A stretch of 64,000 bases of DNA from Bacteroidia bacterium (lineage in GTDB: Bacteria > Bacteroidota > Bacteroidia > M30B66), in contig OZ257142.1 of the NCBI GenBank assembly GCA_965279035.1, positions 416,001 to 480,000 on the forward strand, read 5' to 3'. A program made the position numbers and the translations under genes. This document shows, piece by piece, positions 27,252-54,090 of this stretch; position 1 is the stretch's first letter, and each line of letters starts with the position of its first letter. The notes below the pieces were generated by a model. That model was given only the letters and a program-made list of their open reading frames with translations. It did not search any database and was not told the DNA's origin.

Positions 27252-30200
27252 ATGAAAGTTTGGTCGAAATTTGTTTTTTCCCTCATCGTTGGGATGATCT
27301 CTTTTTCAATGCCTTTGTTGGCAGGTGGAGAGATAGCGAATGCAGGTTCGGACCAAGTAATTTGCACTAATTCAGTTACTCTAGCAGGAAATGCCCCAGT
27401 TATTTACACTGGTTTATGGACGGTAGTTACCGGAACGGGAAGCTTTTCTGACGCAAACGATCCGAGTACAAGTGTCAGCAACCTCGATATTGGTGAGACA
27501 ATTCTCGTTTGGGAATTCTATCAAGTGGATGTGCTGATTTCATCCGACACGGTTAAAATTACCGTTCAAGAACCACCAATCGCATCTGCCGGAATTGACC
27601 AAACCATTTGTTCTTCTTCGGCAAATTTAGATGCCGTTCCTGCAACAAACGGAAGCTGGGCACTTATGTCTGGTGCTGGAACATTGGCAGATAATACTTT
27701 GGCAAATACTGCTGTTTCGGATTTGGCTGTTGGTGAAAATGTGTTTCGTTGGACGGTTCCAGGAGGTGCTTGTGCCGATGCATTTGATGAAGTTTCCGTA
27801 TTTCAGGATTCTCCACCAACAAGTTCTGTCGCCGGTTCAGATCAAACCATTTGTTCAACATCTACAACATTGGATGCCAACTTCGCACTCGTTGGCGGAG
27901 GACAATGGATCGTCATCACAGGAACTGGAAATTTTACTTTTGATGCCGATCCTCAAACGGTTGTAAGCGGGCTTTCCACAGGTATCAACACTTTCCGTTG
28001 GACAATTAGCAATGGCGTGTGTGCTTCTTCGACGGATGATGTGAACATCACAGTTCAATCGCCTCCAACAACCCCTAATGCCGGAACGGATCAAACCATT
28101 TGTTCCTCTTCGGCAATTTTAGATGCCGTTCCTGCAACAAACGGAAGCTGGGCGCTTATGTCAGGTGCTGGAACTTTGGCTGATAATACATTGGCCAGTA
28201 CAGCTGTTTCGAATTTGATTCTTGGTGAAAATGTGTTTCGGTGGACGGTTCCTGGAGGTGCTTGTGCCGATGCATTTGATGAAGTTTCCATATTTCAGGA
28301 TGCGCCACCAACTAATTCTTCTGCCGGTTCAGATCAAACCATTTGTTCAACATCCACAACATTGGATGCCAACTTCGCATTCGTTGGCGGAGGACAATGG
28401 AGCGTCATTGCTGGAACTGGAAATTTTACTTTTGATGCCGATCCTCAAACCTTCGTCAGCGGACTTTCCACAGGTATCAACACTTTCCGTTGGACAATAA
28501 GCAACGGTGTTTGTGCAGCTTCGACGGATGATGTGAACATCACAGTTCAATCTCCTCCAACAACTCCTAATGCAGGAACAGATCAAACCATTTGTTCCTC
28601 TTCAACTACACTTAACGCAACCGCCGCAAGTGGAGGAAGTTGGACACTCATAAGCGGAAGCGGAACATTGGCCAATGCTTCTTCTGCAACATCAAGTGTT
28701 TCTGGACTTTCCACTGGTGTGAATGTGATTCGCTGGACAGTTCCTGGAGGTACTTGTTCCGATGTGTTTGATGAAGTAAGCATCACTGTTGATGCACCAC
28801 CAACAAGTTCAGCAGCAGGTTCAGACCAATCCATTTGCTCAACAACAGCAACACTTTCAGGAAATACACCAAGTTCAGGAACGGGACTTTGGTCGGTTAT
28901 TACTGGAACCGCTTTATTCAACAATGCGACTAGTCCTAGCACTTCCGTTTCTGGTTTATCGGTTGGAATAAACGTGCTTCGCTGGACAATCTCCAATGGA
29001 ACCTGTACACCATCGAGCGACGATATTACTATTACCGTTGATAATAATCCAGCTAGCCCCAATGCAGGGATCGATCAAACACTGTGTGCTTCTTCCACCA
29101 ACTTAGCTGCAACTCCAGCAACAGGCGGTGCTTGGACGCTTGTAAGTGGAAGCGGAACGATAGCAAATGCATCTTCTGCAACCTCTGGTGTAACAGGACT
29201 TTCCAATGGAGTGAATGTGTTTCGATGGACGATTCCGGGTGGTGCTTGTGGGAATGTAAGCGATGATGTGAGCATTACCGTTGATCAATCTCCAACAACA
29301 TCTCAAGCCGGTTCAGATCAAACCATTTGTACAACTTCAACAACATTGAACGCCAACACAGCACTCGTTGGAACTGGACAATGGAGCATTATTACAGGAA
29401 GTGGAACATTCGTTTCAAATTCCAATCCTCTAACAGCAGTCAGCGGACTTTCCACTGGACTCAACACTTTCCGTTGGACAATAAGCAATGGTGTTTGTAC
29501 TGCATCAACCGATGATGTAAGCATCACCGTTCAATCTCCACCTTCAACACCGAATGCGGGAACGGATCAAACCATCTGTTCATCTTCTGCTACGCTCAAT
29601 GCAACAGCTGCAAGTGGTGGTCATTGGACCGTAATCAGCGGTAGCGGAAATTTTAGTAATGCAAATCTGGCAAACACGAATGTTACCGGACTTTCCAATG
29701 GAGCAAATGTGTTTCGTTGGACTGTATCGAGTGGTGTTTGTGCCGACGTAAGCGATGATGTTACAATCACCGTTGACACACCACCAACAAGTTCTTCAGC
29801 TGGTTCAGACCAATCCATTTGCTCAACAACAGCAACACTTTCAGGCAACACACCAAGTTCAGGAACGGGACTTTGGTCGGTTATAACTGGTACAGCATTA
29901 TTCAACAATGCGACGAATCCTAGCACTTCCGTTTCGGGATTATCTGTTGGAGTGAACGTGCTTCGCTGGACAATCTCCAACGGGACTTGCACACCTTCGA
30001 GCGATGATGTTACGATAACTGTTGACAATAATCCACTTAGTCCGAATGCTGGTTCTGACCAACAACTCTGCGCTTCATCCACCAGCTTAGCAGCAACTCC
30101 AGCAACCGGCGGCGCTTGGACATTAGTAAGCGGAAGCGGAACTCTGGCTAACGCATCTTCTGCAACTTCAGGAATAACTGGACTTTCCAACGGAGTAAAT

Positions 30201-33200
30201 GTGTTTCGCTGGACGATTCCAGGTGGTGCATGTGGGGATGTTTTTGATGAAGTGAGCATCACAGTGTATGCTGCTCCAACAAGTTCCTCTGCTGGTTCAG
30301 ACCAGTCGATTTGTTCAACAACAGCAACACTTTCAGGGAATACTCCAAGTTCGGGAACTGGACTTTGGTCAGTTATTACCGGAACCGCTTTATTCAACAA
30401 TGCAACGAGTCCAAGCACTTCCGTTTCAGGATTATCGATTGGAGTGAATGTGCTTCGCTGGACAATCTCCAACGGAACATGCGCTCCATCGAGCGATGAT
30501 ATTACTATTACCGTTGATAATAATCCAGCTAGTCCCAATGCTGGTATAGATCAAACTCTGTGTGCTTCATCCACCAACTTAGCAGCAACACCAGCAACAG
30601 GCGGCGCTTGGACACTTGTAAGTGGAAGCGGAACGATAGCAAATGCAACTTCTGCAACATCGGGTGTAACTGGACTTTCCAATGGAGTGAATGTGTTTCG
30701 TTGGACGATTCCAGGTGGTGCTTGTGGTAATGTTTCAGATGACTTGAGCATCACGGTGTATGCTGCTCCAACAAGTTCCTCTGCTGGTTCAGACCAGTCG
30801 ATTTGTTCAACAACAGCAACACTTTCAGGGAATACTCCAAGTTCGGGAACTGGGCTTTGGTCGGTAATTACTGGAACAGCATTATTCAACAATGCGACGA
30901 ATCCTAGTACTTCCGTTTCGGGATTATCGGTTGGAGTGAACGTGCTTCGCTGGACAATCTCCAATGGAACTTGCACTCCATCGAGCGATGATATTACCAT
31001 CACCGTTGATAATAATCCTGTAAGTCCCAATGCTGGAATCGATCAAACACTGTGTGCTTCATCCACCAACTTAGCAGCAACACCAGCAACAGGCGGCGCT
31101 TGGACACTCTTAAGCGGAAGTGGAACACTGGCAAATGCATCTTCAGCAAACTCTAGTGTAACGGGACTTTCAGTTGGTGTGAATGTATTCCGTTGGACGA
31201 TTCCGGGCGGTGCTTGTGGGAATGTAAGTGATGATGTAAGCATTACCGTTGATCAATCTCCAACAAGTTCTCAAGCTGGATTAGATCAAACCATTTGTGC
31301 AACTTCAACAACATTGGGAGCTAATACAGCACTCATTGGAACAGGGCAATGGAGCGTAATCTCCGGCAGCGGAACTTTCGTTTCGAATTCCAATCCTCTA
31401 ACAGCTATCAGCGGACTTTCCAATGGCATCAACACCTTCCGATGGACAATTAGCAATGGTGTGTGCACTTCTTCTACGGATGATGTGAGCATCACCGTTC
31501 AAACTCCTCCAACAACTCCAAATGCGGGTACTGATCAAGCCATCTGTTCTTCTTCAGCTACGCTCAATGCAACAGCTGCAAGTGGTGGTCATTGGACCAT
31601 AATCAGTGGTAGCGGAAATTTCAGTAATTCAAATTTGGCAAACACGAATGTTACCGGACTTTCCAATGGAGCAAATGTGTTTCGTTGGACTGTTTCGAGC
31701 GGCGTTTGTGCCGATGTAAGCGATGATGTTACAATCACCGTTGACACACCACCAACAAGTTCTTCAGCTGGTTCAGACCAATCCATTTGCTCAACAACAG
31801 CAACACTTTCAGGCAACACTCCAAGTTCAGGAACAGGACTTTGGTCGGTAATTACTGGAACAGCATTATTCAACAATGCTACGAATCCAAGCACGTCCGT
31901 TTCAGGATTATCTGTTGGAGTGAACGTGCTTCGCTGGACAATCTCCAACGGGACTTGCACACCTTCGAGCGATGATGTTACGATAACTGTTGACAATAAT
32001 CCACTTAGTCCGAATGCTGGTTCTGACCAACAACTCTGCGCTTCATCCACCAGCTTAGCAGCAACTCCAGCAACCGGCGGCGCTTGGACATTAGTAAGCG
32101 GAAGCGGAACTCTGGCTAACGCATCTTCTGCAACATCCGGTGTTACTGGACTTTCCAACGGAGTGAGTGTGTTTCGTTGGACTATTCCAGGTGGAGCGTG
32201 TGGTAATGTGAGCGATGAGGTAAGTATTACAGTTGATAGTCCACCGAGCACGTCCAATGCGGGAATTGATCAATCAATTTGTTCAACAGTGGCAACTCTT
32301 GCTGCCAATACTCCAAGTTCTGGAACTGGGCTTTGGACTGTTGTTTCTGGTTCGGGTTTGTTTGCAAATGCCAATAGTCCGAGTACTTCGGTTTCTGGAT
32401 TATCGGTCGGTGTCAATGTGCTTCGCTGGACAATATCCAACGGAACCTGTAGTGCTTCAACCGATGTTGTTTCAATAACGGTTGACAATAATCCGGTATC
32501 ACCCAATGCTGGCCCAGATCAAACATTATGTGCATCAACTACAACATTAGCAGCGACAGCAAGTTCGGGCGGTTCATGGACCTTGATAAGTGGAACGGGA
32601 ACAATTCAAAATGCCACCTCAGCAACATCAAGCGTTAGCGGACTTTCCATTGGCACGAATGTTTTTCGTTGGACCATTCCAGGCGGTGCATGTGGAAATG
32701 TATCTGATGATGTAAGTATACTCGTTCAAGCTCCGCCTTCTGTTTCAGTTGCAGGTTCTGATCAAGTAATTTGTACTTCTTTTACAAGCATGGCAGCAAC
32801 TGCTCCAACCATTGGAACTGGAGCTTGGTCAGTTGTTAGTGGTTCGGGGCTTTTTGGAAATGCCAATTCAGCCACTAGTTCAGTTACAGGATTGTCGTCT
32901 GGCAATAATGTATTTCGTTGGACCATCAGCAATGGTGTTTGTTCAACTTCAAGTGATGATGTAACGATTACGGTTTCAACTTCTCCGGCTACGCCGAATG
33001 CCGGCTCCGATCAAACCTTATGTGCAAGTTCATCAACATTATCTGCTAGTCCTTCGGGAGGAATTTGGACAGTAGTTTCCGGAACGGCAACATTTCAAAA
33101 TGCATCTTCAGCGACGTCTTCAGTATCCGGTCTTTCAACAGGAATCAATGTGCTACGTTGGACCATCGACGGAGGTGCTTGTGCCGATGTAAGTGATGAT

Positions 33201-36200
33201 ATTACAATCACCGTTCAGTCGCCTCCAACTACTGCTAATGCTGGCTCGGATCAAAGTATTTGTTCTACTTCGGCAACCTTAAATGGAAACTCTCCTTCAA
33301 CAGGAACAGGATTATGGACGGTGATTTCAGGAACTGCCACTTTTGCAAATGCTAGCTTAGCAAATACAACGGTTACAGGATTATCAATCGGAACAAACAT
33401 ACTTCGTTGGACCATCAGCAATGGAGTTTGTAGCGCATCAACAGATGATGTTTCTATCATTGTTGATTCCAATCCTTCAACACCATCGGCAGGCGTCGAC
33501 CAAACCATTTGTTCTACATCAACACAACTTTCAGCAAGTCCAAGCGGAGGAACATGGACTGTTGTAAGTGGAACGGCAAATTTCCAAAGCACATCTTCCC
33601 CAACATCAACTGTAACAGGCTTAGCAACCGGAATAAATATTCTACGCTGGACAATCACATCAGGAACTTGTCCAAGTGCAAGCGACGATGTTTCTATTAC
33701 AGTTCAAAGTCAACCTAGCACTGCATTGGCAGGAAATGACCAAACCATTTGTTCAACTACAGCGACTCTTTCAGGAAATACTCCTACTGTTGGATCTGGA
33801 ATATGGACCGTCGTATCGGGAACAGCCACATTTGCCAATGCTACTTTGCCTTCAACTTCGGTTACTGGATTATCAACTGGAATAAATATCTTACGTTGGA
33901 CAATTAGCAATGGAGTTTGTCCAACATCTTCCGACGATGTTTCAATTAATGTAGATTCAAATCCAACAACCCCATCAGCTGGAATAGATCAAACCATTTG
34001 TTCATCATCTACTCAGCTTTCTGCAAGTCCAGCAACTGGATCATGGACCGTTGTAAGTGGTTCAGCTACATTTCTAAATGCAAGTTTGGCAACATCAACT
34101 GTAACTGGCCTCGCTGCAGGTATTAATGTTTTACGCTGGACTGTCACTTCGGGAACATGCCCCAGTGCATCCGACGATATAACAATCACAGTACAAACAA
34201 CACCAAGCACGGCAGCAGCAGGTACCGATCAAACTATTTGTTCCACTTCTACCACCTTATCTGCAAATTCACCCATCAACGGAACAGGAAGCTGGTCGGT
34301 GATCTCAGGTACTGCAACATTTGCTAACACCACGCTGGCAACAACATCCATTACCGGACTTTCAGTTGGCAACAATGTACTTCGTTGGACTATCAGCAAT
34401 GGTGTTTGTCCAGTATCTACCGATGATGTTACGATTTTAGTTGATGCCAATCCTTCAAGTCCATCGGCAGGAATTGATCAAACTATTTGTACCTCTTCTA
34501 CACAATTGTCGGCTAGTCCAACAGGAGGAATTTGGACAGTGATTAGCGGTGCTGCAACGTTTCAAAATTCAAGTTCGGCAACATCAAACGTTACAGGACT
34601 TTCCAACGGAGTAAACATTCTACGTTGGACTATTACTTCAGGAACTTGTCCAAGCGTATTTGACGAAGTGAGTATCACCGTGCAAACGCTTCCTACAACT
34701 TCTGCTGCAGGAACAGACCAATCCATTTGTTCTACAAACGCCACTTTAGCTGCTAATAATGCAAGCGTGGGCAATGGGATTTGGACTGTTGTAAATGGCT
34801 CAGGAACTTTTGCCAATGCGAATTCTGCAAGTTCAACTGTTTCAGGATTAACGGCAGGAGTGAATACGTTTCGTTGGACAATTAGCAATGGAGTTTGTCC
34901 TGTTTCGAGTGATGATGTTGTGATCACGGTTCAAACAACACCAGCAACGCCCAATGCAGGAGCAGATCAAAGCATCTGTTCTTCTTCAACAAATCTTTCT
35001 GCAACAGCTGTAAGCGGAGCTGTATGGTCTGTTGTAAGCGGAAGCGGAACATTTGCAAATTCATCATTAGCAAACACGCTGGTTACAGGACTTTCCAACG
35101 GGCTCAACGTATTTCGATGGACTGTAAGTGGAGGAACTTGTCCCAATGCAACAGATGATGTTTTTATTGCAGTGGATCAAGCACCAACAGTTTCCAATGC
35201 AGGTGCTAATCAGTCGATTTGCTCAACAGTTACCTTGCTTGCTGCCAATACACCTCTTATTGGAAGTGGCGTTTGGTCAGTTGTTTCCGGTACAGGATCA
35301 TTTTCCAATGCCAATAATCCTCAAGCTTCCGTTTCGGGTCTTTCGGTAGGAAACAATGTGCTTCGCTGGACCATTTCAAATGGAACTTGCACTCCTTCTC
35401 AAAGTACGGTAACCATTACGGTTGATAACAACCCACTATCACCCAATGCAGGTTCCGATCAGATCATTTGTTCTAACTCTACAACGCTCTCTGCAACCGC
35501 AGCATCAGGAGCTTTCTGGTCGGTAATTAGCGGATCAGGAACAATTCAAAATACCTCAAACGCATCAACATCTGTTTCGGGATTATCCAATGGTGCTAAT
35601 GTATTTCGCTGGACTATTCCAGGTGCTTCTTGTGGAAACGTTTCTGATGATGTTACCATTGTTGTTCAATCTCCGCCATCAACTTCTGCCGCTGGTCAAG
35701 ATCAAACCATCTGTTCAACATCAACAAGTTTAGCTGCCAATAATCCAATAACAGGAAACGGCACATGGACAGTGATAAGCGGTTCTGCAACATTCTCCAA
35801 TGCGAATTCTCCAACAACAACAGTATCTGGTCTATCAACAGGAGTTAATGTTTTACGATGGTCTATAAGCAATGGAGTTTGTACAGCATCTACCGACGAT
35901 GTTACTATTATTGTTACAGCCTCACCGGCAACACCCTCTGCGGGTTCAGATCAAACTATTTGTTCTTCAACAACCAATGTTACTGCTAGTCCAGCTGTAG
36001 GAACTTGGTCGCTTATAAGCGGTTCCGGGATTATTTCAAATCCAACTTCCGCATCAACTAGCATTACTGGTTTAACAGCTGGCACAAGCATCTTCCGTTG
36101 GACTATTGATGGTGGAACTTGTCCAGATGTTTCGGATGATGTTTCCATCACCATTCAAGCATTACCGACCACATCAAATGCCGGCTCTGATCAATCGATT

Positions 36201-39200
36201 TGTTCAACATCTGCAAGCCTTTCGGGCAATTCACCTCTTTCTGGATCAGGTACTTGGACAGTCGTTTCAGGTAGTGGAACTTTTGCCAACGCAACACTCT
36301 TTAACACTACTGTTTCGGGCTTGTTTACTGGAACTAATGTGTTTCGTTGGACCATCAGCAATGGAGTTTGTCCCGTTTCGTTTGATGATGTTTCCATTAT
36401 TGTTGATGCCAATCCTGTGAATCCATCTGCAGGTTCTGATCAAACCATCTGTTCTTCAACAACACAACTTTCGGCTAGTCCAAATGGTGGAACGTGGTCT
36501 CTGGTAAGTGGTACAGCAACTTTCCAAAATAGCACTTCAGCTACAAGCACCGTTACAGGTTTACAAACGGGAACTAATGTGTTGAGGTGGACGGTAAGTT
36601 CTGGTTCATGTCCATCCGTTTCGGATGATGTTACGATAACAGTTCAACAAACTCCTACTACTGCAAATGCTGGAATAGATCAAACCATTTGTACTTCATC
36701 AACTACACTCAATGCGAATGTCCCAAGCGTCGGAACGGGTGTTTGGTCGGTTGTTTCGGGCGCTGCCACTTTTGTAAATGCTACCTCTGCTTCAACGGCC
36801 ATTTCAGGATTGTCTTCAGGCTTAACAATTCTTCGATGGACTATTAGCAATGGTGTTTGTGCGTCTTCTTCGGATGATGTTTCGATTCTTGTTGAAACCG
36901 GCCCGGGGACAGCCTTTGCCGGTGCTGATCAATCGGTTTGTTCATCAACGGTTACCTTAGCAGCCACTCCTGCAACAGGTGGTTTATGGAGCTTGATTTC
37001 TGGTTCTGGAACTATAGCGAATGCAAGTCTTGCCAATACTGTCGTTACTGGATTGACTGTTGGAACCAGCGTTTTTCGTTGGACAGTAAGCTCCGGATCT
37101 TGTGCTTCTGTTTCAGATGAAGTGAGCATCATGGTTAACAATCCTCCTAGCGCTTCCAATGCAGGAATTGACCAAACCATTTGTCTCACATCTGCTGCAC
37201 TTTCTGCAAATGTACCTAGTACAGGAACCGGTGTTTGGTCGGTTATCTCCGGTTCTGGATTTTTTGCCAATGCAAACCTCCCTAACACGAGCATTTCGGG
37301 GCTATCTGTTGGAGTGAATGTTTTACGATGGACCATTAGCAATAGCAATTGTACTCCATCAACCGATGAAGTTTCCATTACAGTTCTTCAAGCCCCTAGC
37401 AATGTTCAAGCGGGAGTAGATCAAGTAATTTGTGGAACAGTTGCAACGCTTTCGGCTACTGCGCCAGCTCAAGGGTCTGGTCATTGGACTGTCGTTTCGG
37501 GTGCAGGTGTCTTTGCTAATGCCAATGCTGCGAGCACCTCAGTAACAGGGATTTCATCTGGTACAAATGTTTATCGATGGACAGTAAGTAATGGATCTTG
37601 TGCTACTGCTTCAGATGAAATAACCATTCTATCTTCTGCTTTACCAACTACGTCTAATGCTGGTTCCGACCAAACTATTTGCTCCAACACGGCAACCATC
37701 CAAGGAAATTTTGCAACGGTTGGCACTGGTGCTTGGTCGGTTATTTCGGGTGGAGGCATTATCCAAAACAACAGCTTGCCGCAAACAACTGTAACGAATT
37801 TGCAAACTGGAATCAATGTTTTCCGTTGGACAATTAGCAATGGAACATGCTCACCTTCGACCGATGATGTTACCATAAATGTAATCGCTCCAGTTGTTTC
37901 GAATGCGGGAGCAGATCAAGATATTTGTAGCACATCGGCTACGTTTCAAGCAGTTTTGCCTTCCGGAACAACTGGTTTATGGAATGTAGTTTCTGGTTCG
38001 GGAATTATTCAAACGCCTAGTTCTCCAACATCACAAATCAGCAATTTAGGCATCGGCGCCAATGTGTTTCAATGGAATGTTAATAATGGTGTTTGTCCTT
38101 CTGCAACATCAACAGTTACTATTACACGATTTGCAGACCCTTCGGATGCTAATGCCGGCACCGACTTTCAAACTTGTGCTAATTCAGCAAACCTATCAGC
38201 CAACATACCATCTATCGGAACGGGTTTTTGGTCAGTCGTTTCGGGTTCGGGAACGTTTTCAAACCCTACTTTAGCAACTAGCGCAGTAACGGGCTTAACT
38301 GCTGGAATCAATCAATTTGAATGGGCTATTTCAAATGGTCCTTGCGGAATTAAACGCGACACCATTGCTGTGACAGTTGATCAAAATCCAACCTCCGCTT
38401 TTGCAGGAAGTGATCAACAGCTTTGTGCTTCAACTGCAACATGCACGGCTACAGCACCAAGTTCTGGAACTGGATTATGGACCTTAATATCGGGTGTTGG
38501 AACCATTGCAAATCCTACATTGGCAAATACTAGTTTGAGCAATCTTGGCGCAGGAAACAATGTTTTTCGATGGACAATTTCCAATGGAACCTGTGTTACG
38601 TTTGATGAAGTTACCATTACCCGATTTTTACCACCAAGCACTGCCATTGCAGGAACAAATCTCATCATCTGTTCATCATCCGCTAGCTTAAGCGCAAATA
38701 TTCCAGTCGTTGGAACAGGTATTTGGACTGTACTTTCTGGATCAGGAACTTTTGCACAAGCAAGTTCAGCTACAACAACAGTTAATAATCTGGGAGCTGG
38801 TGCAAACGTGCTTTCATGGACAATTAGTAATGGTGTTTGTCCTGCTTCTTCCGATCAGGTAACCATCGATCAACAACAAGCACCAACACCTGCTGCAGCT
38901 GGCAACGATCAAGAAATTTGTGCTTCAACGGCTGTTTTAAACGCCAATCTTCCAATCATTGGCAATGGTGTTTGGTCTTTATTAAGTGGTTCAGGAACAC
39001 TCGAAGATGCTCTTTCTCCTACAAGCACTATTTCTGGTCTTGGTGCTGGGGAAAATGTGTTTCAATGGTCAACATTGAATGGACTTTGTCCAGCCTCAAC
39101 CGATCAAGTAATCATTACACGTGATGTTGCTCCATCTGCTGCTTTTGCTGGAATTGATATTTCAACCTGTTCAAATGCTGCAACACTCAGTGCTCAAATT

Positions 39201-40919
39201 CCTACGATTGGTACAGGTGTTTGGACAATCTTAACAGGAAGTGGAAATCTTTCATCCTCAACTTCTCCGGATGCCAATATTTCGAATCTTTTAATCGGTG
39301 AAACTCAATTGCAATGGGCTGTTAGCAATGGTGTTTGTCCAACTTCATTCGATTCAATTAGCATCACAGCGTTTGCATCTCCCGCCCAGGCGTATGCAGG
39401 CATCGATGAAACAATCTGTTCCGATAGTATTTTTCTTGTTGGAAACACTTCTGTAGGAAGTAATTATTCTTGGGAAATGCTGGTTGGGCAAGCGGATTTC
39501 GAAGATTCAAGTTCTGTTCAAACTGCAATCATCAACATTGCTCCTGGAAATAATCTCATACGATATTCTATATCAAATGGCCCATGCAGCACTGCTGACT
39601 CTATTCAGATTTTCCGTTACGAATTGCCATCTCCTGCAAATGCTGGAACGGATAGTGTTTTCTGTTCCGATCAATTTTTAACACAAGCAACAATACCTCT
39701 CGTTGGTCAAGGAACTTGGACTTCTCTTTCCGGGGAAATTGTTTTTTCAGATTCTAGCTTAGCTCAAACAAGCATCTCTGGACTTGTTGAAGGAACAAAT
39801 ACGCTGGTTTGGTTGGTCGAAAATGGTGCTTGTCCTTCGAATGCAGACACGGTAAATTTGATGCGCGATGTGCCCTCAGAAATAGCTTCTGCCATGGCAG
39901 ATACAAACGTTTGTGTTGCGAATTTGCAAATACAGGCTCTGGCTCCAATTAATGCAATAGGCCATTGGGAACTGATTTCGGGCGATGCTCAAATCGTAGA
40001 TTCTACTTTAGCTCAAACCGAAATTGGCATGTCGGCCGAAGGCGAAAACATGCTCGTTTGGACACTTAGCGAAGGATCTTGTCGTAGCTCAGACTCTGTT
40101 TTAATATCGTTCAACTATGATCCTTTTCCACTGTTTGCAGGAGAAGATCAATCGGTTTGTGGACTCATTACCAACCTAGAAGCCCTCGATTCAGGAATTG
40201 GAGTTGGGCAATGGTCGCTTCTTTTATCCGATGGAACTTTATCCGATCCAAACGACCCCAATTCAACGTTTTCTGTAGATTATGCAGCTCAGAGACATGT
40301 AATTTGGACGGTAGTAAATGGATTCTGTTCTGCGAGCGATACGGTAAATATCAATTTTCTTGATTTCCCTATTTCTGATGCAGGTCCCGATTTGATTGGT
40401 TGTTTAGGAGATACAACAGCACTTCAAGCAGTTATCCCTGATTTTGGAGTTGGAACATGGACGGTCTTAACTCCTGGCGGAAATGTGTTCGAGCCTGGTT
40501 TTCAAAACAGCAATTTTACAGCTTCGGAGCAAGGAAATTATTATGTCCGATGGACGGTTGTGAATGATGTATGTAGAGATTCTTCCTATACTGTAGTAAC
40601 AGTGTATGGTCCAGATGATCCTGAATGTAAAGGTCCTGATGTTGTATTCATTCCGGAAGGTTTTTCTCCAAACAATGATGGTGTTTTAGACAAATTTGTC
40701 ATTGTAAAACCTCAAACTAAACGAGCATCTTTAGAGGTTTTTGATCGTTACGGAATATTAGTTTATAGTAATTCTGACTATCAAAACGATTGGGACGGAA
40801 CAGCTCAAAACGGAACCATTCTACAAGGAACTCAACTTCCTGAAAGCACGTATTATTACCTATTGAAAGTGGATGGGGAAACAGAAACTCGGAAAGGATA
40901 TTTCACTTTGTGGCGTTAA
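27252..40919 (+). CDS. Giant T9SS type-B cargo made almost entirely of about 54 Cys-paired Ser/Thr-rich Ig/PKD-like repeats
   Basis: Signal peptide, then repeats from about residue 28; C-terminal VFIPEGFSPNNDG..D...VFDRYG..VY...YQNDWDG...TYYY type-B CTD. Confidence 0.92.
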   Translation: MKVWSKFVFSLIVGMISFSMPLLAGGEIANAGSDQVICTNSVTLAGNAPVIYTGLWTVVTGTGSFSDANDPSTSVSNLDIGETILVWEFYQVDVLISSDTVKITVQEPPIASAGIDQTICSSSANLDAVPATNGSWALMSGAGTLADNTLANTAVSDLAVGENVFRWTVPGGACADAFDEVSVFQDSPPTSSVAGSDQTICSTSTTLDANFALVGGGQWIVITGTGNFTFDADPQTVVSGLSTGINTFRWTISNGVCASSTDDVNITVQSPPTTPNAGTDQTICSSSAILDAVPATNGSWALMSGAGTLADNTLASTAVSNLILGENVFRWTVPGGACADAFDEVSIFQDAPPTNSSAGSDQTICSTSTTLDANFAFVGGGQWSVIAGTGNFTFDADPQTFVSGLSTGINTFRWTISNGVCAASTDDVNITVQSPPTTPNAGTDQTICSSSTTLNATAASGGSWTLISGSGTLANASSATSSVSGLSTGVNVIRWTVPGGTCSDVFDEVSITVDAPPTSSAAGSDQSICSTTATLSGNTPSSGTGLWSVITGTALFNNATSPSTSVSGLSVGINVLRWTISNGTCTPSSDDITITVDNNPASPNAGIDQTLCASSTNLAATPATGGAWTLVSGSGTIANASSATSGVTGLSNGVNVFRWTIPGGACGNVSDDVSITVDQSPTTSQAGSDQTICTTSTTLNANTALVGTGQWSIITGSGTFVSNSNPLTAVSGLSTGLNTFRWTISNGVCTASTDDVSITVQSPPSTPNAGTDQTICSSSATLNATAASGGHWTVISGSGNFSNANLANTNVTGLSNGANVFRWTVSSGVCADVSDDVTITVDTPPTSSSAGSDQSICSTTATLSGNTPSSGTGLWSVITGTALFNNATNPSTSVSGLSVGVNVLRWTISNGTCTPSSDDVTITVDNNPLSPNAGSDQQLCASSTSLAATPATGGAWTLVSGSGTLANASSATSGITGLSNGVNVFRWTIPGGACGDVFDEVSITVYAAPTSSSAGSDQSICSTTATLSGNTPSSGTGLWSVITGTALFNNATSPSTSVSGLSIGVNVLRWTISNGTCAPSSDDITITVDNNPASPNAGIDQTLCASSTNLAATPATGGAWTLVSGSGTIANATSATSGVTGLSNGVNVFRWTIPGGACGNVSDDLSITVYAAPTSSSAGSDQSICSTTATLSGNTPSSGTGLWSVITGTALFNNATNPSTSVSGLSVGVNVLRWTISNGTCTPSSDDITITVDNNPVSPNAGIDQTLCASSTNLAATPATGGAWTLLSGSGTLANASSANSSVTGLSVGVNVFRWTIPGGACGNVSDDVSITVDQSPTSSQAGLDQTICATSTTLGANTALIGTGQWSVISGSGTFVSNSNPLTAISGLSNGINTFRWTISNGVCTSSTDDVSITVQTPPTTPNAGTDQAICSSSATLNATAASGGHWTIISGSGNFSNSNLANTNVTGLSNGANVFRWTVSSGVCADVSDDVTITVDTPPTSSSAGSDQSICSTTATLSGNTPSSGTGLWSVITGTALFNNATNPSTSVSGLSVGVNVLRWTISNGTCTPSSDDVTITVDNNPLSPNAGSDQQLCASSTSLAATPATGGAWTLVSGSGTLANASSATSGVTGLSNGVSVFRWTIPGGACGNVSDEVSITVDSPPSTSNAGIDQSICSTVATLAANTPSSGTGLWTVVSGSGLFANANSPSTSVSGLSVGVNVLRWTISNGTCSASTDVVSITVDNNPVSPNAGPDQTLCASTTTLAATASSGGSWTLISGTGTIQNATSATSSVSGLSIGTNVFRWTIPGGACGNVSDDVSILVQAPPSVSVAGSDQVICTSFTSMAATAPTIGTGAWSVVSGSGLFGNANSATSSVTGLSSGNNVFRWTISNGVCSTSSDDVTITVSTSPATPNAGSDQTLCASSSTLSASPSGGIWTVVSGTATFQNASSATSSVSGLSTGINVLRWTIDGGACADVSDDITITVQSPPTTANAGSDQSICSTSATLNGNSPSTGTGLWTVISGTATFANASLANTTVTGLSIGTNILRWTISNGVCSASTDDVSIIVDSNPSTPSAGVDQTICSTSTQLSASPSGGTWTVVSGTANFQSTSSPTSTVTGLATGINILRWTITSGTCPSASDDVSITVQSQPSTALAGNDQTICSTTATLSGNTPTVGSGIWTVVSGTATFANATLPSTSVTGLSTGINILRWTISNGVCPTSSDDVSINVDSNPTTPSAGIDQTICSSSTQLSASPATGSWTVVSGSATFLNASLATSTVTGLAAGINVLRWTVTSGTCPSASDDITITVQTTPSTAAAGTDQTICSTSTTLSANSPINGTGSWSVISGTATFANTTLATTSITGLSVGNNVLRWTISNGVCPVSTDDVTILVDANPSSPSAGIDQTICTSSTQLSASPTGGIWTVISGAATFQNSSSATSNVTGLSNGVNILRWTITSGTCPSVFDEVSITVQTLPTTSAAGTDQSICSTNATLAANNASVGNGIWTVVNGSGTFANANSASSTVSGLTAGVNTFRWTISNGVCPVSSDDVVITVQTTPATPNAGADQSICSSSTNLSATAVSGAVWSVVSGSGTFANSSLANTLVTGLSNGLNVFRWTVSGGTCPNATDDVFIAVDQAPTVSNAGANQSICSTVTLLAANTPLIGSGVWSVVSGTGSFSNANNPQASVSGLSVGNNVLRWTISNGTCTPSQSTVTITVDNNPLSPNAGSDQIICSNSTTLSATAASGAFWSVISGSGTIQNTSNASTSVSGLSNGANVFRWTIPGASCGNVSDDVTIVVQSPPSTSAAGQDQTICSTSTSLAANNPITGNGTWTVISGSATFSNANSPTTTVSGLSTGVNVLRWSISNGVCTASTDDVTIIVTASPATPSAGSDQTICSSTTNVTASPAVGTWSLISGSGIISNPTSASTSITGLTAGTSIFRWTIDGGTCPDVSDDVSITIQALPTTSNAGSDQSICSTSASLSGNSPLSGSGTWTVVSGSGTFANATLFNTTVSGLFTGTNVFRWTISNGVCPVSFDDVSIIVDANPVNPSAGSDQTICSSTTQLSASPNGGTWSLVSGTATFQNSTSATSTVTGLQTGTNVLRWTVSSGSCPSVSDDVTITVQQTPTTANAGIDQTICTSSTTLNANVPSVGTGVWSVVSGAATFVNATSASTAISGLSSGLTILRWTISNGVCASSSDDVSILVETGPGTAFAGADQSVCSSTVTLAATPATGGLWSLISGSGTIANASLANTVVTGLTVGTSVFRWTVSSGSCASVSDEVSIMVNNPPSASNAGIDQTICLTSAALSANVPSTGTGVWSVISGSGFFANANLPNTSISGLSVGVNVLRWTISNSNCTPSTDEVSITVLQAPSNVQAGVDQVICGTVATLSATAPAQGSGHWTVVSGAGVFANANAASTSVTGISSGTNVYRWTVSNGSCATASDEITILSSALPTTSNAGSDQTICSNTATIQGNFATVGTGAWSVISGGGIIQNNSLPQTTVTNLQTGINVFRWTISNGTCSPSTDDVTINVIAPVVSNAGADQDICSTSATFQAVLPSGTTGLWNVVSGSGIIQTPSSPTSQISNLGIGANVFQWNVNNGVCPSATSTVTITRFADPSDANAGTDFQTCANSANLSANIPSIGTGFWSVVSGSGTFSNPTLATSAVTGLTAGINQFEWAISNGPCGIKRDTIAVTVDQNPTSAFAGSDQQLCASTATCTATAPSSGTGLWTLISGVGTIANPTLANTSLSNLGAGNNVFRWTISNGTCVTFDEVTITRFLPPSTAIAGTNLIICSSSASLSANIPVVGTGIWTVLSGSGTFAQASSATTTVNNLGAGANVLSWTISNGVCPASSDQVTIDQQQAPTPAAAGNDQEICASTAVLNANLPIIGNGVWSLLSGSGTLEDALSPTSTISGLGAGENVFQWSTLNGLCPASTDQVIITRDVAPSAAFAGIDISTCSNAATLSAQIPTIGTGVWTILTGSGNLSSSTSPDANISNLLIGETQLQWAVSNGVCPTSFDSISITAFASPAQAYAGIDETICSDSIFLVGNTSVGSNYSWEMLVGQADFEDSSSVQTAIINIAPGNNLIRYSISNGPCSTADSIQIFRYELPSPANAGTDSVFCSDQFLTQATIPLVGQGTWTSLSGEIVFSDSSLAQTSISGLVEGTNTLVWLVENGACPSNADTVNLMRDVPSEIASAMADTNVCVANLQIQALAPINAIGHWELISGDAQIVDSTLAQTEIGMSAEGENMLVWTLSEGSCRSSDSVLISFNYDPFPLFAGEDQSVCGLITNLEALDSGIGVGQWSLLLSDGTLSDPNDPNSTFSVDYAAQRHVIWTVVNGFCSASDTVNINFLDFPISDAGPDLIGCLGDTTALQAVIPDFGVGTWTVLTPGGNVFEPGFQNSNFTASEQGNYYVRWTVVNDVCRDSSYTVVTVYGPDDPECKGPDVVFIPEGFSPNNDGVLDKFVIVKPQTKRASLEVFDRYGILVYSNSDYQNDWDGTAQNGTILQGTQLPESTYYYLLKVDGETETRKGYFTLWR
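27597..32300 (+). repeat. Near-identical intragenic tandem duplications with a 492-nt period (164 aa) and a 1968-nt higher-order copy
   Basis: Matching DNA blocks start at 27601/28093 and 30261/30753 (offset 492) and at 29761/31729 (offset 1968 = 4 x 492); right boundary approximate. Confidence 0.88.
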
Positions 40920-50420: not shown

Positions 50421-51110
50421 TCAGTGATACGATTTCGTCGATATCAATACCACTCCACTTGTTGTATCACCAAACTGAGCAGGAAGTCCACCTGTTATTA
50501 CGACTATTTCTCCTATGCCTTGATTGGGTAATTGTGGTTCACCAATCACTTTAACTCCATCAATCATATAAAGCGTAGAACCCGAACGTGAACCCGAAAA
50601 ATTGAGTGGATCACCACTATCTTTCATGTATACTTTAGGAACCGTTGAGCCAATAATATTTCCAACATCACGCAAATTTGCAGAATATGAAATGTCTTCT
50701 GGCCCAAGGCGCTTCATCGTTCCGGGTGTTCCTGCTCCAAGTAAATCTTCTTTCCATTTTTCGTGTATGAACTCAAAAACGGTCCCTTCTTTCACACTAA
50801 GTGATTTGTTCAAAAAGGTGATGCTACTGTTTTTAATGAGAACATCCGAAAGTTTCAATCCTTGATAACCAACAAAGCTGATTTCGACTTCGTATTTACC
50901 AACTGGAATACCTTTAATAGCATAATCTCCATTAACATCCGTATATCCACCAAATGTTTGCGTACCGGCTTGAAGTTTTACAACAGCCATCTCGATTCCT
51001 TTTCCAGTAGCGTCGTCGGTAATTTTACCTTGCAACGTACCGCTATTTCCTTGTGCAAAAAGGCCGTTCCCAAACACTATGAGAAAGAGAGCCACGAATA
51101 TGTTTTTCAT
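50421..51110 (-). CDS. Carboxypeptidase-regulatory-like domain + TonB-receptor plug-like domain, no beta-barrel
   Basis: Signal peptide MKNIF...LFA-Q; G.LQGKITD..TG, TDVNGDY.I..IPVGKY.V..SFVGY; GSRS..TLYMIDGVKV...VITGGLPAQFGD.TSGVV.I.TK then stop and terminator. Confidence 0.8.
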   Translation of the reverse strand: MKNIFVALFLIVFGNGLFAQGNSGTLQGKITDDATGKGIEMAVVKLQAGTQTFGGYTDVNGDYAIKGIPVGKYEVEISFVGYQGLKLSDVLIKNSSITFLNKSLSVKEGTVFEFIHEKWKEDLLGAGTPGTMKRLGPEDISYSANLRDVGNIIGSTVPKVYMKDSGDPLNFSGSRSGSTLYMIDGVKVIGEPQLPNQGIGEIVVITGGLPAQFGDTTSGVVLISTKSYH

Positions 51111-51238
51111 ATTTCTAAAATTGATTGAATCAAAGATAGCTGTCAACAAATTGGCTTTCAAGAACATGTTCGGGCAGGTGTCGGATAAAAGCCTTTCATT
51201 ATTTCTTAACATTTTTGGGAGAGAATTGTTAAAAACCA

Positions 51239-51269
51239 TTTGCACATTCGTGATGATTGATTACTTTTG
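51239..51269 (+). promoter_or_regulatory. Bacteroidota sigma-A promoter of rplU-rpmA
   Basis: TTTG (51239-51242), 19-nt spacer, TACTTTTG (51262-51269), matching the -33/-7 consensus. Confidence 0.75.
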
Positions 51270-51309
51270 CGTCCCTTTTCGAAGAAGAGGATAACAAATC
51301 TTTCTTACT

Positions 51310-51621
51310 ATGTACGCAATTGTAGATATCGCAGGTCAGCAATTTAAAGTGGAGAAAGACCAAGAACTGTTTGTTCACCGTCTCGCTAATAACGAAGGTG
51401 ACTCTGTTAAGTTCGACAACGTATTGTTGATCGATAATAACGGATCAGTGAAGGTCGGAGCTCCCACCGTAAGCGGTGCAAGCGTGAGCGCCAAAGTGCT
51501 CACTCACCTAAAAGGTGATAAGGTAATCGTTTTCAAAAAGAAACGCCGTAAAGGCTATCAGAAATCAAACGGTCACCGTCAATCGTTCACCAAAATTCAG
51601 ATTTCAGGAATCAACGCCTAA
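51310..51621 (+). CDS. rplU: 50S ribosomal protein L21
   Basis: [13 protein letters not shown]...[13 protein letters not shown]....GHRQ. Confidence 0.98.
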
Positions 51622-51636
51622 TCCCAACAAGAAAAC

Positions 51637-51900
51637 ATGGCACATAAGAAAGGGGCGGGTAGCTCCAAAAACGGTCGCGAATCGCATAGCAAACGTCTTG
51701 GTGTGAAAATTTTTGGTGGTCAACTGGCAATTGCTGGAAACATCATCATCCGTCAACGCGGAACCAAGCATCATCCAGGCCTTAACGTAGGTATTGGAAA
51801 AGATCACACCTTGTTCGCTCTAGTAGATGGCACGGTAGAATTCAAACGTCGCGGCGACGATAAATCGTTCGTGTCGATTGTTCCTTTCGTAGCAGAATAA
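51637..51900 (+). CDS. rpmA: 50S ribosomal protein L27
   Basis: [24 protein letters not shown]...RQRGT. Confidence 0.98.
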
Positions 51901-51916
51901 TTTAATATTTTAACAT

Positions 51917-51948
51917 AGCCTCTGTATGGAAACGTACAGAGGCTTTTT
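51917..51948 (+). terminator. Rho-independent terminator of rplU-rpmA
   Basis: AGCCTCTGTATG-gaaa-CGTACAGAGGCT followed by a T run. Confidence 0.9.
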
Positions 51949-52029
51949 GCGTTGGAGCGAATTCATTCGTTATCTTATACTTATTAAACTGAACAGGAAG
52001 CCAACATTGAATTAATTCAAATTATCTTT

Positions 52030-52188
52030 TGTTGCATATATTCTGTGGCACAATAAAAAGCAACAGAAAAAAAGCAACAGTTGTGTTACCTTTTTTCTGT
52101 TACCTCTAAAAAAAGCAACAAGAATTATGTAACAGTTTTGTTACCTTTTTTCTGTTACATCTAAAAAAGCAACAAGAATTATGTAACA
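52030..52188. repeat. Phased array of 12 TGTTRC/GYAACA boxes, including a 55/54-nt tandem duplication
   Basis: Boxes start at 52030, 52044 (TGTGGC variant), 52060, 52074, 52084, 52098, 52115, 52129, 52139, 52153, 52169 and 52183; 52076-52130 and 52131-52184 differ by two substitutions and one A. Confidence 0.9.
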
Positions 52189-52283
52189 GAAAAGCCTAGG
52201 CAGATTTGCGAAAGCACCAATTGATTTAATTAGCGTTTCGACTTTTTTATAGAATTATCTGGGGATTGCAAATTCGAAAAAAC

Positions 52284-52318
52284 AAAAAAGCCGCAAAAGA
52301 ACAAGGTCTTATGCGGCT
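52284..52318 (-). terminator. Rho-independent terminator of the mltD-like gene
   Basis: Minus strand AGCCGCA-taagaccttgttcttt-TGCGGCT followed by a T run. Confidence 0.8.
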
Positions 52319-52338
52319 ATAGGTTATTAACAATTCCT

Positions 52339-53928
52339 CTATTTCGTCTTTACCTTAATTTTCATTCCTGTTCGTAAAACAGTTTTGGAGGTAAAGCCAT
52401 TCAACTTCTTGATCTCTGATAAAGTCATTCCATGACTAACAGCTACTTTCCACAGCGTATCTCCCGGACGAACTTTATACGTTGAAACACCTGGCGTCTT
52501 TTTCTCTTTTACCGGTTTCCCAGAATCTTTCGGATTGACTACAGGAGTACTCTCTACTTTTTCTTCAGAACCCTGAGTCGTTGTTTGTACTTCTTCGGCA
52601 GGTTTAATTTCGCTATTTCCTCCGCTTGCCTTTACCGATTGTTCAACCTGAGCGGAATAGGGTGATGTTACTTTTAATCGCTGTCCTCGCTTGAGTTTCG
52701 CGCTCATCAGCTTATTCCACTTTTTGATATCATTCACCGTTACTCCATACTTTCTCGCAACGGCCGAAATGCTCTCTCCCGAACGAACCACGTGGGTTTT
52801 GGATGCAATTGGAAGCGCTCGTTTGATACTCATCAAACTATCCATGCGGCTTTCGCGTGGCGATTTGTAATTGTATATGGTTTCTTCGTTATTAATAAAC
52901 GCAGCCACCTTTCCTTTGGGCAAGGTTAATATATGATGTCCTTCCGTTTCGGGAATAACGCCTAATAAATACGATGGGTTTAAAAAGGCAATGTCTTCAA
53001 CGGGCATGTCCAATACAGCAGAAAGCTGATTGAACGTTAAACGACGATGAATATGTAATGTATCAATCTCATTGAAAATCGCTTTGGGCATAATCGGATA
53101 GAGATTATGCTCTTTCGAATAATTCATCACATAAACCGCTGCAATAAATGCAGGAACATAACCGGCTGTTTCGCGCGGTAAATAAGGGCGTAAATCCCAA
53201 TAGTTTGTTTTTCCACCGGAACGCCGAATGGCTTTATTCACATTTCCCGGTCCGCTATTATAAGCAGCCAAAACCAATGACCAATCTTTATAAATAGAGT
53301 AGAGGTACTTCATGTATAAACACGCGGCTTCGGTCGATTTTATTGGATCGCAGCGCTCATCCACATAACTATTGATGTTGAGCTTAAACAATTTACCTGT
53401 TCCATACATGAACTGCCATAATCCTTGAGCACCAACTCGGGATCGAGCTGCAGGATTTAATGCTGATTCAACAATGGCTAAATATTTTAACTCAAGCGGC
53501 ATTTTATATTTGGCAAGAGTTTCTTCAAATAAGGGGAAATACAATTCCGATAAACCAATCATGCGAGAAACCTGATTGCGTTTACGAATCGAATACATAT
53601 TGATATAGGCTTTCACCTCATCATTGTAAATCAATTTGAATGGAGAAAGCGCATCCATTTTCGCAATGCGTTCGGCAAGAATCTGTGGAGAATAAACAGG
53701 AACCGAATCGGCAGAAAACCCAAAGTTCCCCGGACGGCCAAATTCTCCACCAAAACGAGTTGTTTCGAACAACTTTAAATAAGCTAAACTATCGAGTTGT
53801 GCTGCAATGGGATCATCAGCAAGTAAACGAACGGATGTATCGCGTGCTGAAACATAGGTCCTCTTTTGCGGAAAAACGATGCTTGCCAACAGCAGGAAAA
53901 ATCCAGAAAAGACGACTTTTAAACGCAT
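52339..53928 (-). CDS. mltD: Membrane-bound lytic murein transglycosylase D-like (SLT + two LysM)
   Basis: LAIVESAL, GLWQFM, AAYNSGPG, ET.GYVP; H.VRSGES and YKVRPGDTL LysM starts; likely start ATG 53928 (ORF track 54009). Confidence 0.9.
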   Translation of the reverse strand: MRLKVVFSGFFLLLASIVFPQKRTYVSARDTSVRLLADDPIAAQLDSLAYLKLFETTRFGGEFGRPGNFGFSADSVPVYSPQILAERIAKMDALSPFKLIYNDEVKAYINMYSIRKRNQVSRMIGLSELYFPLFEETLAKYKMPLELKYLAIVESALNPAARSRVGAQGLWQFMYGTGKLFKLNINSYVDERCDPIKSTEAACLYMKYLYSIYKDWSLVLAAYNSGPGNVNKAIRRSGGKTNYWDLRPYLPRETAGYVPAFIAAVYVMNYSKEHNLYPIMPKAIFNEIDTLHIHRRLTFNQLSAVLDMPVEDIAFLNPSYLLGVIPETEGHHILTLPKGKVAAFINNEETIYNYKSPRESRMDSLMSIKRALPIASKTHVVRSGESISAVARKYGVTVNDIKKWNKLMSAKLKRGQRLKVTSPYSAQVEQSVKASGGNSEIKPAEEVQTTTQGSEEKVESTPVVNPKDSGKPVKEKKTPGVSTYKVRPGDTLWKVAVSHGMTLSEIKKLNGFTSKTVLRTGMKIKVKTK

Positions 53929-54090
53929 GCGTATATTGAAACGAATTGAAATTAAACTTAGTACATTGGTTTTGCCGCAGGTTGAATGCAGAAAAGGGCA
54001 ATTGCCCAAACCTAAACGATTTTTGCAAATGAAATGGTGTGTCGAATAGGAAATTCAACACATGCTTGTTCACAAAGAACGACGAATCCC

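Follow-up and report, generated by a model that had tools for sequence, protein, structure and literature searches.

A phased array of TGTTRC boxes between rpmA and an mltD-like gene of a Bacteroidia bacterium: a candidate operator array of a helix-turn-helix regulator family

Introduction

The subject of this report is an array of short phased DNA boxes lying at positions 52030–52188, between rpmA and an mltD-like gene, of a 64,000-nucleotide stretch from a Bacteroidia bacterium (contig OZ257142.1; the whole stretch is called "the window" below). Its layout is compared with units found upstream of genes for a family that we name XRE-CC, proteins of ~170–200 aa composed of an N-terminal XRE helix-turn-helix (HTH) and a long helical domain. 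Judged by analogy, SinR of Bacillus subtilis is the closest functional parallel of XRE-CC: in the portion of its description drawn on here (PMC3163267), an XRE-type HTH is joined, as in XRE-CC, to a C-terminal helical oligomerisation part, the protein is a tetramer (dimer of dimers) reading a 7-bp motif that occurs in several copies, inverted and tandem, at target promoters, and it is antagonised by the small neighbouring helical protein SinI, which may parallel P138, a small helical protein encoded behind many XRE-CC genes. The same portion gives SinR 111 aa, a short helical-hook domain and motifs without a fixed arrangement, whereas XRE-CC runs to ~180 aa, including a 50-residue helix and two others, and the geometry in the window is fixed at 14/10-11/14/4. 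Structural similarity is confined to the HTH, that of SinR being the top Foldseek match of an XRE-CC model (E 0.023).

Stl of SaPI1 offers a further comparison. In the sections of its report that bear on the matter (PMC9638917), Stl is an element-specific HTH repressor of a mobile unit and is constitutively tetrameric (a dimer of dimers), its DNA-binding domains being flexible, and two tetramers are bound at an intergenic region holding eight binding sites in four operators with A/T-rich spacers. As far as those sections go, its oligomerisation domain is unrelated to that of XRE-CC, with no sequence relationship detected; its operators are inverted-repeat pairs 3 bp apart, whereas the order in the window is direct-direct-inverted-inverted with a 14-bp period, and its sites lie between divergent promoters, whereas the array lies between terminators. 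C-proteins (C.Esp1396I, C.BclI, C.AhdI) are small XRE HTH proteins such as also appear among the matches to the XRE-CC HTH. They bind as two dimers to a bipartite operator at their own promoter, the ~35-bp operator being made of two palindromes. Unlike XRE-CC, they are ~75–80 aa long and have no helical domain, and, unlike in C-protein systems, no restriction-modification genes stand beside the XRE-CC cassettes examined. Neither the helical domain of XRE-CC nor a fixed direct-direct-inverted-inverted layout of 14-bp period is found in SinR, Stl or the C-proteins.

Phased short intergenic repeats, as in the window, are known as well from iterons, repetitive extragenic palindromic (REP) sequences and bacterial interspersed mosaic elements (BIME). 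Iterons are direct repeats of ~17–22 bp beside a rep gene or an origin, and REPs are highly dispersed; the array shows neither such a neighbour nor such dispersal. On balance, and judging from sequence comparison, we consider it probable, though far from certain, that the array in the window is an operator array of the XRE-CC type, read by a TGTTRC-specific protein encoded outside the 64-kb window.

Results

Architecture of the array

The array consists of 12 six-base boxes forming three units, each of them built as box-N8-box-N10/11-inverted box-N8-inverted box. The boxes start at 52030, 52044, 52060, 52074, 52084, 52098, 52115, 52129, 52139, 52153, 52169 and 52183, that is, in steps of 14, 16, 14, 10, 14, 17, 14, 10, 14, 16 and 14 nt. 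The direct-repeat period is thus 14 nt in all six pairs, the central spacers of units 1, 2 and 3 measure 10, 11 and 10 nt, and neighbouring units are separated by 4 nt (GCAACA-GTTG-TGTTAC and GTAACA-GTTT-TGTTAC), so that the three units of about 50 bp, 14-nt in period and exactly 4 nt apart, described in the original prediction are borne out by the box coordinates. None of the units has a strand: unit 1 (52030–52079) reads TGTTGC-N8-TGTGGC-N10-GCAACA-N8-GCAACA, unit 2 (52084–52134) TGTTAC-N8-TGTTAC-N11-GCAACA-N8-GTAACA, and unit 3 (52139–52188) TGTTAC-N8-TGTTAC-N10-GCAACA-N8-GTAACA. All 12 boxes announced by that prediction are present, but only 11 conform to its consensus TGTTRC/GYAACA, the exception being box 2 of unit 1, which is TGTGGC. 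The junction between units 1 and 2 forms the palindrome GCAACA-N4-TGTTAC (52074–52089), with box centres 10 bp apart like a classical dimer operator, and that between units 2 and 3 forms GTAACA-N4-TGTTAC (52129–52144).

Units 2 and 3 are identical at 49 of 51 positions, in agreement with the near-perfect tandem copy that had been claimed. The likeness of unit 1 to their reverse complement holds only marginally, because each unit is itself palindromic: it has a slight edge in reverse orientation (37/52), but the forward comparison is nearly equal (35/51). The pattern TGTTRC-N8-TGTKRC occurs six times in the window against an expectation of 0.10, every time within the array, and none of 100 shuffles reached six matches. 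Tandem Repeats Finder reported a period of 55 with 2.5 copies and 88% matches at 52055–52189.

Runs, genomes, contigs and loci are designated below by X, G, C and L numbers. The region 51300–52900 is contained in one contig each of X1 (73,292 nt) and X2 (44,708 nt), which cross the array with 0 substitutions and 0 gaps; the two runs belong to one sample, probably the source, and are hence not independent of it. The triplication, so far as can be judged from contigs, is no assembly artefact, a doubt that the original prediction had itself raised. Open reading frames (ORFs) in the array region reach only 21–29 aa and none is conserved in relatives; the array is therefore not coding.

The same grammar in other Bacteroidia

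The recurrence of this grammar in other genomes is a direct observation. Among 24 genomes of the window's order, the four-box pattern was matched in three and a reversed control pattern in none. G013 carries, at one site, two units 4 nt apart with TGTGGC/GCCACA boxes, and G009 carries two sites, one orthologous to that of G013 and the other 12.7 kb away; the arrays of both genomes have a RibD_C gene on one side and genes for type IX secretion cargo on the other, and neither genome has any further site of this kind. The 4-nt gap between tandem units, as in the window, is seen also in G013, at site 1 of G009, in G020 and in G008, and boxes 1 and 2 are identical in nearly every four-box unit compared. 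Viral contigs gave 0 matches to the TGTTRC grammar. A loose class-wide pattern (TGNNNC...) was matched in 105 of 400 genomes; being noisy, with frequent control matches, it served as a source of leads only (G043, G409). In G043, 10 units with about eight different boxes were found, most of them 3–60 nt upstream of genes of ~170–197 aa and several near contig ends.

Two related arrangements were noticed on the way. Beside two TGTGGC units at the second site of G009 stands a unit of identical spacing with TGAGGC/GCCTCA boxes (L117 4150–4200, i.e. G009:C9 ~64150–64200), in which all four boxes have changed in concert, placing two box specificities side by side in one array. Purely direct tandem arrays of 14-nt period, with for example TGTTACAGGTTATT, TGACTCAAAGATGC or TGTGTCATACAAAA repeated 4–8 times or more, occur in other Bacteroidia (G348:C1:316308, G343:C1:768575, G317:C48:8478, G251:C108:17612 and G322:C13:38900).

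Units upstream of XRE-CC genes

With other boxes, the four-box grammar is typically located 3–200 nt upstream of XRE-CC genes, both in the window's order and in other Bacteroidia, and this link is likewise observed directly. Six proteins encoded downstream of G043 units align as one family, that of XRE-CC, and three of the six match Pfam HTH_3 weakly. By a unit detector (up to one mismatch over four 6-mers, period 13–16, loop 7–12), 16 of 28 XRE-CC genes proved to have a unit in the ~300 nt preceding them (9,047 b searched), a count from which the weaker family matches L145 and L146, with no unit seen, and a gene with in-frame stops (L165/L168) were left out. When applied to 729,934 b made up of the window and 80 MltD loci, the same detector returned four sites, all of them rpmA-mltD arrays (the three window units and L001). 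In the window's order, the XRE-CC genes of G020, G008 and G022 have upstream units, the operators of G020 and G008 consisting of two units 4 nt apart. A unit of this class has four copies of a single box of 6–10 bp; among the reference units the period is mostly 14 and sometimes 15, and the central spacer takes up about 8–12 bp. The units of the window agree with this class in box order, in period and spacer and in the 4-nt gap.

Box sequence and recognition helix go together: helix 3 is shared within pairs of paralogues whose boxes are the same (L155/L160, L150/L153 and L151/L152), all four proteins of the TGTG[GT]C type (G020, G008, G022, G409) have R[SA]xxSM in the recognition helix, and two proteins with GTTGCA/GCAAC-type boxes share DRxxLAMIE there. 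L147 and L154 are paralogues of the TGTTAC/GTTGCA type. This co-variation is a qualitative observation made on 25 proteins.

In G043, a genome of 6.1 Mb, at least 22 XRE-CC paralogues are present (loci L143–L168), each with its own box sequence, and three of them (C4, C106 and C189) have been duplicated together with the 3′ end of the upstream gene, which is type IX cargo in at least one copy. In sampled Bacteroidia, XRE-CC was detected in 4 of 150 genomes at E up to 1e-6, one of which (G020) belongs to the window's order; further members in that order are those of G003:C169, G004, G008, G015 and G022.

The XRE-CC and P138 proteins

Run against 1.84 billion representatives, the XRE-CC profile obtained 7,745 matches at E up to 0.001, 1,199 up to 1e-10 and 19 up to 1e-30. 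Among the matches listed, most are full-length at 166–211 aa; in some long multi-HTH proteins it is the HTH alone that matches. The best match, P0016, is 4,162 aa long with 24 separate HTH-like stretches, and several other matches of 300–1,200 aa contain 4–10 such stretches in tandem. PADLOC "Control_protein" models match the XRE-CC HTH weakly (E 3.6e-4 at best). The only label for the family in any source is "XRE-family regulator"; no family name for the four-box grammar, XRE-CC or P138 was found in Pfam, NCBIfam, PHROGs or PADLOC, and no paper among those listed by literature searches had, by title or abstract, a bearing on the XRE-CC family or the four-box grammar.

The AlphaFold2 model of the XRE-CC protein of G020 has a mean predicted local distance difference test (pLDDT) value of 91.4 and comprises an HTH at residues 2–67, a 50-residue helix at 76–126 and two more helices. 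In Foldseek the HTH of this model resembled SinR, C-proteins, HipB and 434 Cro at E 0.02 or weaker, and nothing matched the helical domain. Complex prediction with four copies scored 0.50 against 0.00 for the best of three controls, a score reached in calibration by 20 of 30 same-chain-pair proteins and by one of 23 single-chain ones, although the present run used its own alignment and four copies, unlike the calibration. At least 80% of the contacts agree between runs, with a partner pLDDT of at least 75. The complex prediction thus supports a dimer of XRE-CC; a tetramer is not among the reported interfaces.

The gene for P138 (~138 aa, all-helical) follows the XRE-CC gene in G020, in G008, in G003 and at many G043 loci. 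Its AlphaFold2 model (pLDDT 89.1) has three long helices, for which Foldseek returned only generic coiled-coil matches at E 0.13 or weaker, and in the Atlas P138 falls into hypothetical Bacteroidota clusters. The genes around the XRE-CC/P138 cassettes are otherwise unrelated, as is expected of a small self-contained cassette. In G020 the cassette (L144 109–1143, G020:C55) adjoins an RloB-like gene (PF13707, E 2.2e-24) and has a further helical ORF of 122 aa behind it, and this hints at a location in a defence or mobile island. A layout unlike that of the usual cassette was seen in G009 (L184 360–590, G009:C11), where GCACCAC/GTGGTGC and GGTACC-type palindromes with T/A-run spacers lie downstream of a 183-aa HTH-like gene that is divergent from a P138 gene.

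The rpmA-mltD junction in relatives

Loci retrieved with MltD place the organism of the window among uncultured Bacteroidota metagenome-assembled genomes (MAGs). Synteny of rpmA and mltD together with an array at the junction was found in three assemblies (L022/G001, L002/G002 and L001/G003). The junction of G001 has one unit (TGTTGC, TGTTGC, GCAACA, GTCACA), that of G002 also one, and that of G003 a larger array of TGTGAC/GTCACA boxes with a period of 15–16. A metagenome scan with an anchor pattern from the 3′ end of rpmA yielded a single locus, L082, whose intergenic region is identical to that of L002, and a relative in the freshwater metagenome run X5 retains array sequence at the rpmA-mltD site. 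In all, grammar and spacing are retained in four clade assemblies and in the X5 relative despite diverged flanks. The full unit occurs at one site in G001, among the five relatives' genomes searched, and at two in G003, and TGTTRC palindromes in G001 and G002 are at control level (5 vs 5 and 6 vs 4), so that no second site is indicated there.

The original prediction had made conservation of box identity and spacing in relatives its test. Spacing is kept, but box identity is not, drifting from TGTTAC to TGTTGC, TGTGAC and TGTGGC; the array is clade-specific, constant in layout and variable in box sequence. This drift is no objection to an operator and is typical of the present operator class. 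The sister genomes G004–G007 have different small genes between rpmA and mltD, and the gap is therefore a hotspot of gain and loss. By eye, the inserts at these junctions (L086–L089, of G007, G005, G004 and G006, respectively) include an apparent PIN-type toxin-antitoxin pair and a membrane protein.

Orphan arrays

Units without an adjacent XRE-CC gene form a recurring class, comprising the window array, L126, L122, G003:C333 and the G009/G013 sites, and no gene remnant flanks the window array or the other orphan arrays. Some of them share a box with a cassette elsewhere in the same genome. In G043, TGTAGC is the box both of the C4 cassette and of the orphan L126, which lies between two convergent genes for type IX cargo, and TGTTACAC is that of the C227 cassette and of the orphan L122. 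In G003, a second TGTGAC array (C333) lies between two other convergent genes, and the rpmA-mltD array contains TGACAACGC, a half-site of the operator of this genome's XRE-CC gene. Several arrays stand beside type IX secretion cargo genes, which hints at a part of the orphan arrays in surface-protein control.

Genes and non-coding flanks around the array

The genes around the array in the window are rplU and rpmA on the + strand and the mltD-like gene on the − strand. The upstream convergent gene rpmA (51637–51900, +) encodes ribosomal protein L27 (PF01016, E 1e-37) and is followed by a terminator hairpin with a T run (51917–51949, +), which has a perfect 10-bp stem (51917–51926/51935–51944). 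The downstream convergent gene (52339–54009, −) encodes an mltD-like lytic transglycosylase with an SLT and two LysM domains, and its terminator hairpin (52289–52318, −) is preceded by an A run on the + strand. With the hairpins at 51917–51944 and 52289–52318 confirmed, the claimed position of the array between the two terminators, upstream of no gene, stands. The AT-rich non-coding flank on the rpmA side (51950–52029) has no ORF of at least 30 aa and is poorly conserved in relatives, and no remnant of an XRE-CC or P138 gene is detectable in the non-coding flank on the mltD side (52189–52288).

TAnnTTTG is the −7 promoter consensus of Bacteroidetes. No exact TAnnTTTG is present on either strand of 51945–52290, where five one-mismatch matches occur on the + strand, and the idea of a promoter in the array region was dropped. 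RNA contigs from relatives (X11) cover rplU-rpmA to 51902 and do not include the array; they have no bearing on its transcription. Elsewhere in the window, a giant ORF of 4,555 aa (27252–40919, +) probably encodes a surface adhesin. It contains tandem repeats of 492 bp (164 aa) at 27587–32237, present in 7.7 copies with 70% matches, besides a younger pair with 91%.

Discussion

The original prediction had proposed a cooperative protein-binding platform without a named grammar. The comparison supports its general part, by the XRE genes that lie downstream of such units and by the recognition helix that goes with the box, whereas the specific options it offered fail, as discussed below. The 50-bp unit is made of two direct boxes 14 bp apart, a 10–11 bp A/T spacer and the same two boxes inverted. 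If the array is indeed an operator of the XRE-CC type, an XRE-CC protein in self-associated form would read each box with one of its HTH domains. One unit would then take four HTH domains, i.e. two symmetric dimers related by the dyad of the unit. Since each 4-nt junction adds a 16-bp palindrome whose box centres are 10 bp apart, the three units could be coated cooperatively, and their 12 boxes may be covered by up to six dimers, forming one nucleoprotein block of ~160 bp. In the cassettes, where the unit overlaps what would be the regulator's own promoter region, this arrangement may serve autoregulation, each paralogue with its own box. The window array, by contrast, would be an orphan or remote copy between two terminators, with no adjacent gene to control. 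It is from sequence that we infer the binding, its stoichiometry and the role; as to the latter, the array is at present most likely a remote or decoy (titration) site, or a roadblock between convergent genes.

Several observations weigh against this proposal. The window contains no XRE-CC, P138 or XRE-HTH homologue (best E 0.16–0.8) and its flanks no remnant, and the array was therefore filed as an orphan or remote unit; the position 5′ of an XRE-CC gene that autoregulation would call for is absent. The closest array-bearing relatives G001 and G002, both incomplete MAGs, gave no full-length XRE-CC match, and in the MAGs G009 and G013, which have TGTGGC arrays, no XRE-CC of the TGTGGC type was found at the thresholds used. 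G001 does contain, at L185 1032–1349 (G001:C63), a 5′-truncated P138 remnant directly behind an unrelated 250-aa gene and without an XRE-CC gene, which is a decayed cassette. The single unit at the junction of G002 is itself decayed (TGTTGC, TGTGTC, GGAACA, GACACA), and at L009 and L012, with ~72% MltD identity, the junction has the two terminators only and no array. On the side of the family, 12 of the 28 XRE-CC genes have no unit by the strict detector, even though several of these 12 show degenerate or differently built palindromes by eye; matches of Pfam, NCBIfam and PHROGs to the HTH are weak or generic; and the predicted interface is pairwise only, one symmetric pair formed through residues ~82–89, 112–124 and 157–180, which does not extend to a tetramer.

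Part of these points would also follow if the array were a relic, namely the operator remaining from an XRE-CC cassette, or from a gene once controlled by it, that had been inserted at the rpmA-mltD hotspot, the protein having been lost and the unbound DNA now expanding by replication slippage. We regard this as possible, albeit doubtful. The junction is hypervariable, with different small genes in G004–G007 and terminators only in distant relatives; the boxes of L002 have decayed, G001 retains only the truncated P138 remnant with no XRE-CC detected, and units 2 and 3 (49/51) look very recently duplicated. Yet the grammar and spacing have been kept in the four clade assemblies and the X5 relative while the flanks diverged, the same box recurs in G003 in a second array, at a different convergent junction, and this genome also has an XRE-CC gene with a related half-site, no pseudogene remnant lies beside any orphan array, and the incompleteness of the MAGs means that absence of the protein is not established. 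That the array belongs to another DNA-binding system altogether, whether a replication iteron or origin, a recombination (att) site with accessory boxes or a chromosome-organisation site, appears quite unlikely, although one or two sites per genome in the window's order, AT-rich spacers, two sites between convergent genes and a junction that is an insertion hotspot would be compatible with it. DnaA boxes, searched with the known consensus, number 14 near-matches in the 64 kb against 17.6 expected, with none in 51900–52340, and outside one small clade the position of the site is not conserved, L009 and L012 lacking it; an iteron or origin, as the original prediction had suggested, is thus not borne out. 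The parS consensus is the 16-bp palindrome TGTTNCACGTGAAACA. Two matches with three mismatches occur in the window against 3.3 expected, and none in the array, so a ParB site was rejected, and the option of chromosome organisation finds no support. Neither beside the array in the window nor at the other sites examined is there a neighbouring rep, par or recombinase gene; for recombination, the lack of a recombinase beside any copy is the observation at hand, no further test having been aimed at it. Furthermore, the units of G043, at least 10 in number and differing in their boxes, stand for the most part at XRE-CC gene starts, which fits operators and not a unique chromosomal site.

A structured RNA or single-strand hairpin array (a small RNA, a protein sponge or a terminator-like element), with one strand transcribed, is in our estimation highly unlikely. 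Both strands are predicted to fold far more stably than shuffles (−55.3 kcal/mol, z −6.7 for the minus strand; −42.2 kcal/mol, z −4.25 for the plus strand), and the A/G differences among boxes give G-U pairs on the minus strand and A-C mismatches on the plus strand, but such stability is expected of any inverted-repeat DNA. In addition, the N8 spacers are not complementary in relatives, both being T-rich in G009 and both A-rich in G013, and a hairpin needs no identity of boxes 1 and 2, which are nevertheless identical in nearly every unit. A described RNA family was rejected for 51000–53000, where Rfam 15 gave nine matches at E up to 1, the best with 24.7 bits against a gathering score of 50; matches for the G009/G013 loci were below gathering score too, the TAnnTTTG motif has no exact occurrence, and the flanks are not conserved as those of a small RNA gene would be. 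As for a non-autonomous mobile element inserting at gene ends, of the miniature inverted-repeat transposable element (MITE) or the REP/BIME type, we hold it to be extremely unlikely. The position between convergent genes is frequent for REP/BIME, the copy number at the site varies among relatives and several G043 units lie near contig ends. The full unit, however, occurs once in G001, twice in G003, at two sites in G009 and one in G013, and nowhere else in the 64-kb window; these counts speak against the mobile-element remnant that had been proposed. Terminal repeats and target duplications were not noted, nor does a transposase lie next to the array.

To return to an operator array of the XRE-CC type, a bolder version of it may be worth stating, although we think it unlikely as a whole. 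The array would be a working chromosomal landmark, a high-capacity decoy or roadblock, for one member of a hypervariable two-gene cassette of Bacteroidota, XRE-CC with P138, whose helix and operator co-diversify, giving up to more than 20 mutually orthogonal copies per genome, much like the incompatibility or immunity specificities of selfish elements. Orphan arrays would then be a new means by which such cassettes act remotely, with genes for type IX secretion cargo as possible targets.

While multi-site operators of oligomeric XRE repressors are already known, the fixed four-box grammar, the XRE-CC family and P138 carry no family name in the databases searched. If the proposed reading of the array as an XRE-CC-type operator is true, it would explain a class of puzzling intergenic repeats in Bacteroidota, and the paralogues with their boxes would make up a naturally occurring collection of orthogonal helix-box pairs that could allow a recognition code to be read. 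It would also raise the question of what function arrays without genes have between terminators, and the arrays beside type IX secretion cargo genes would hint at control of surface proteins.

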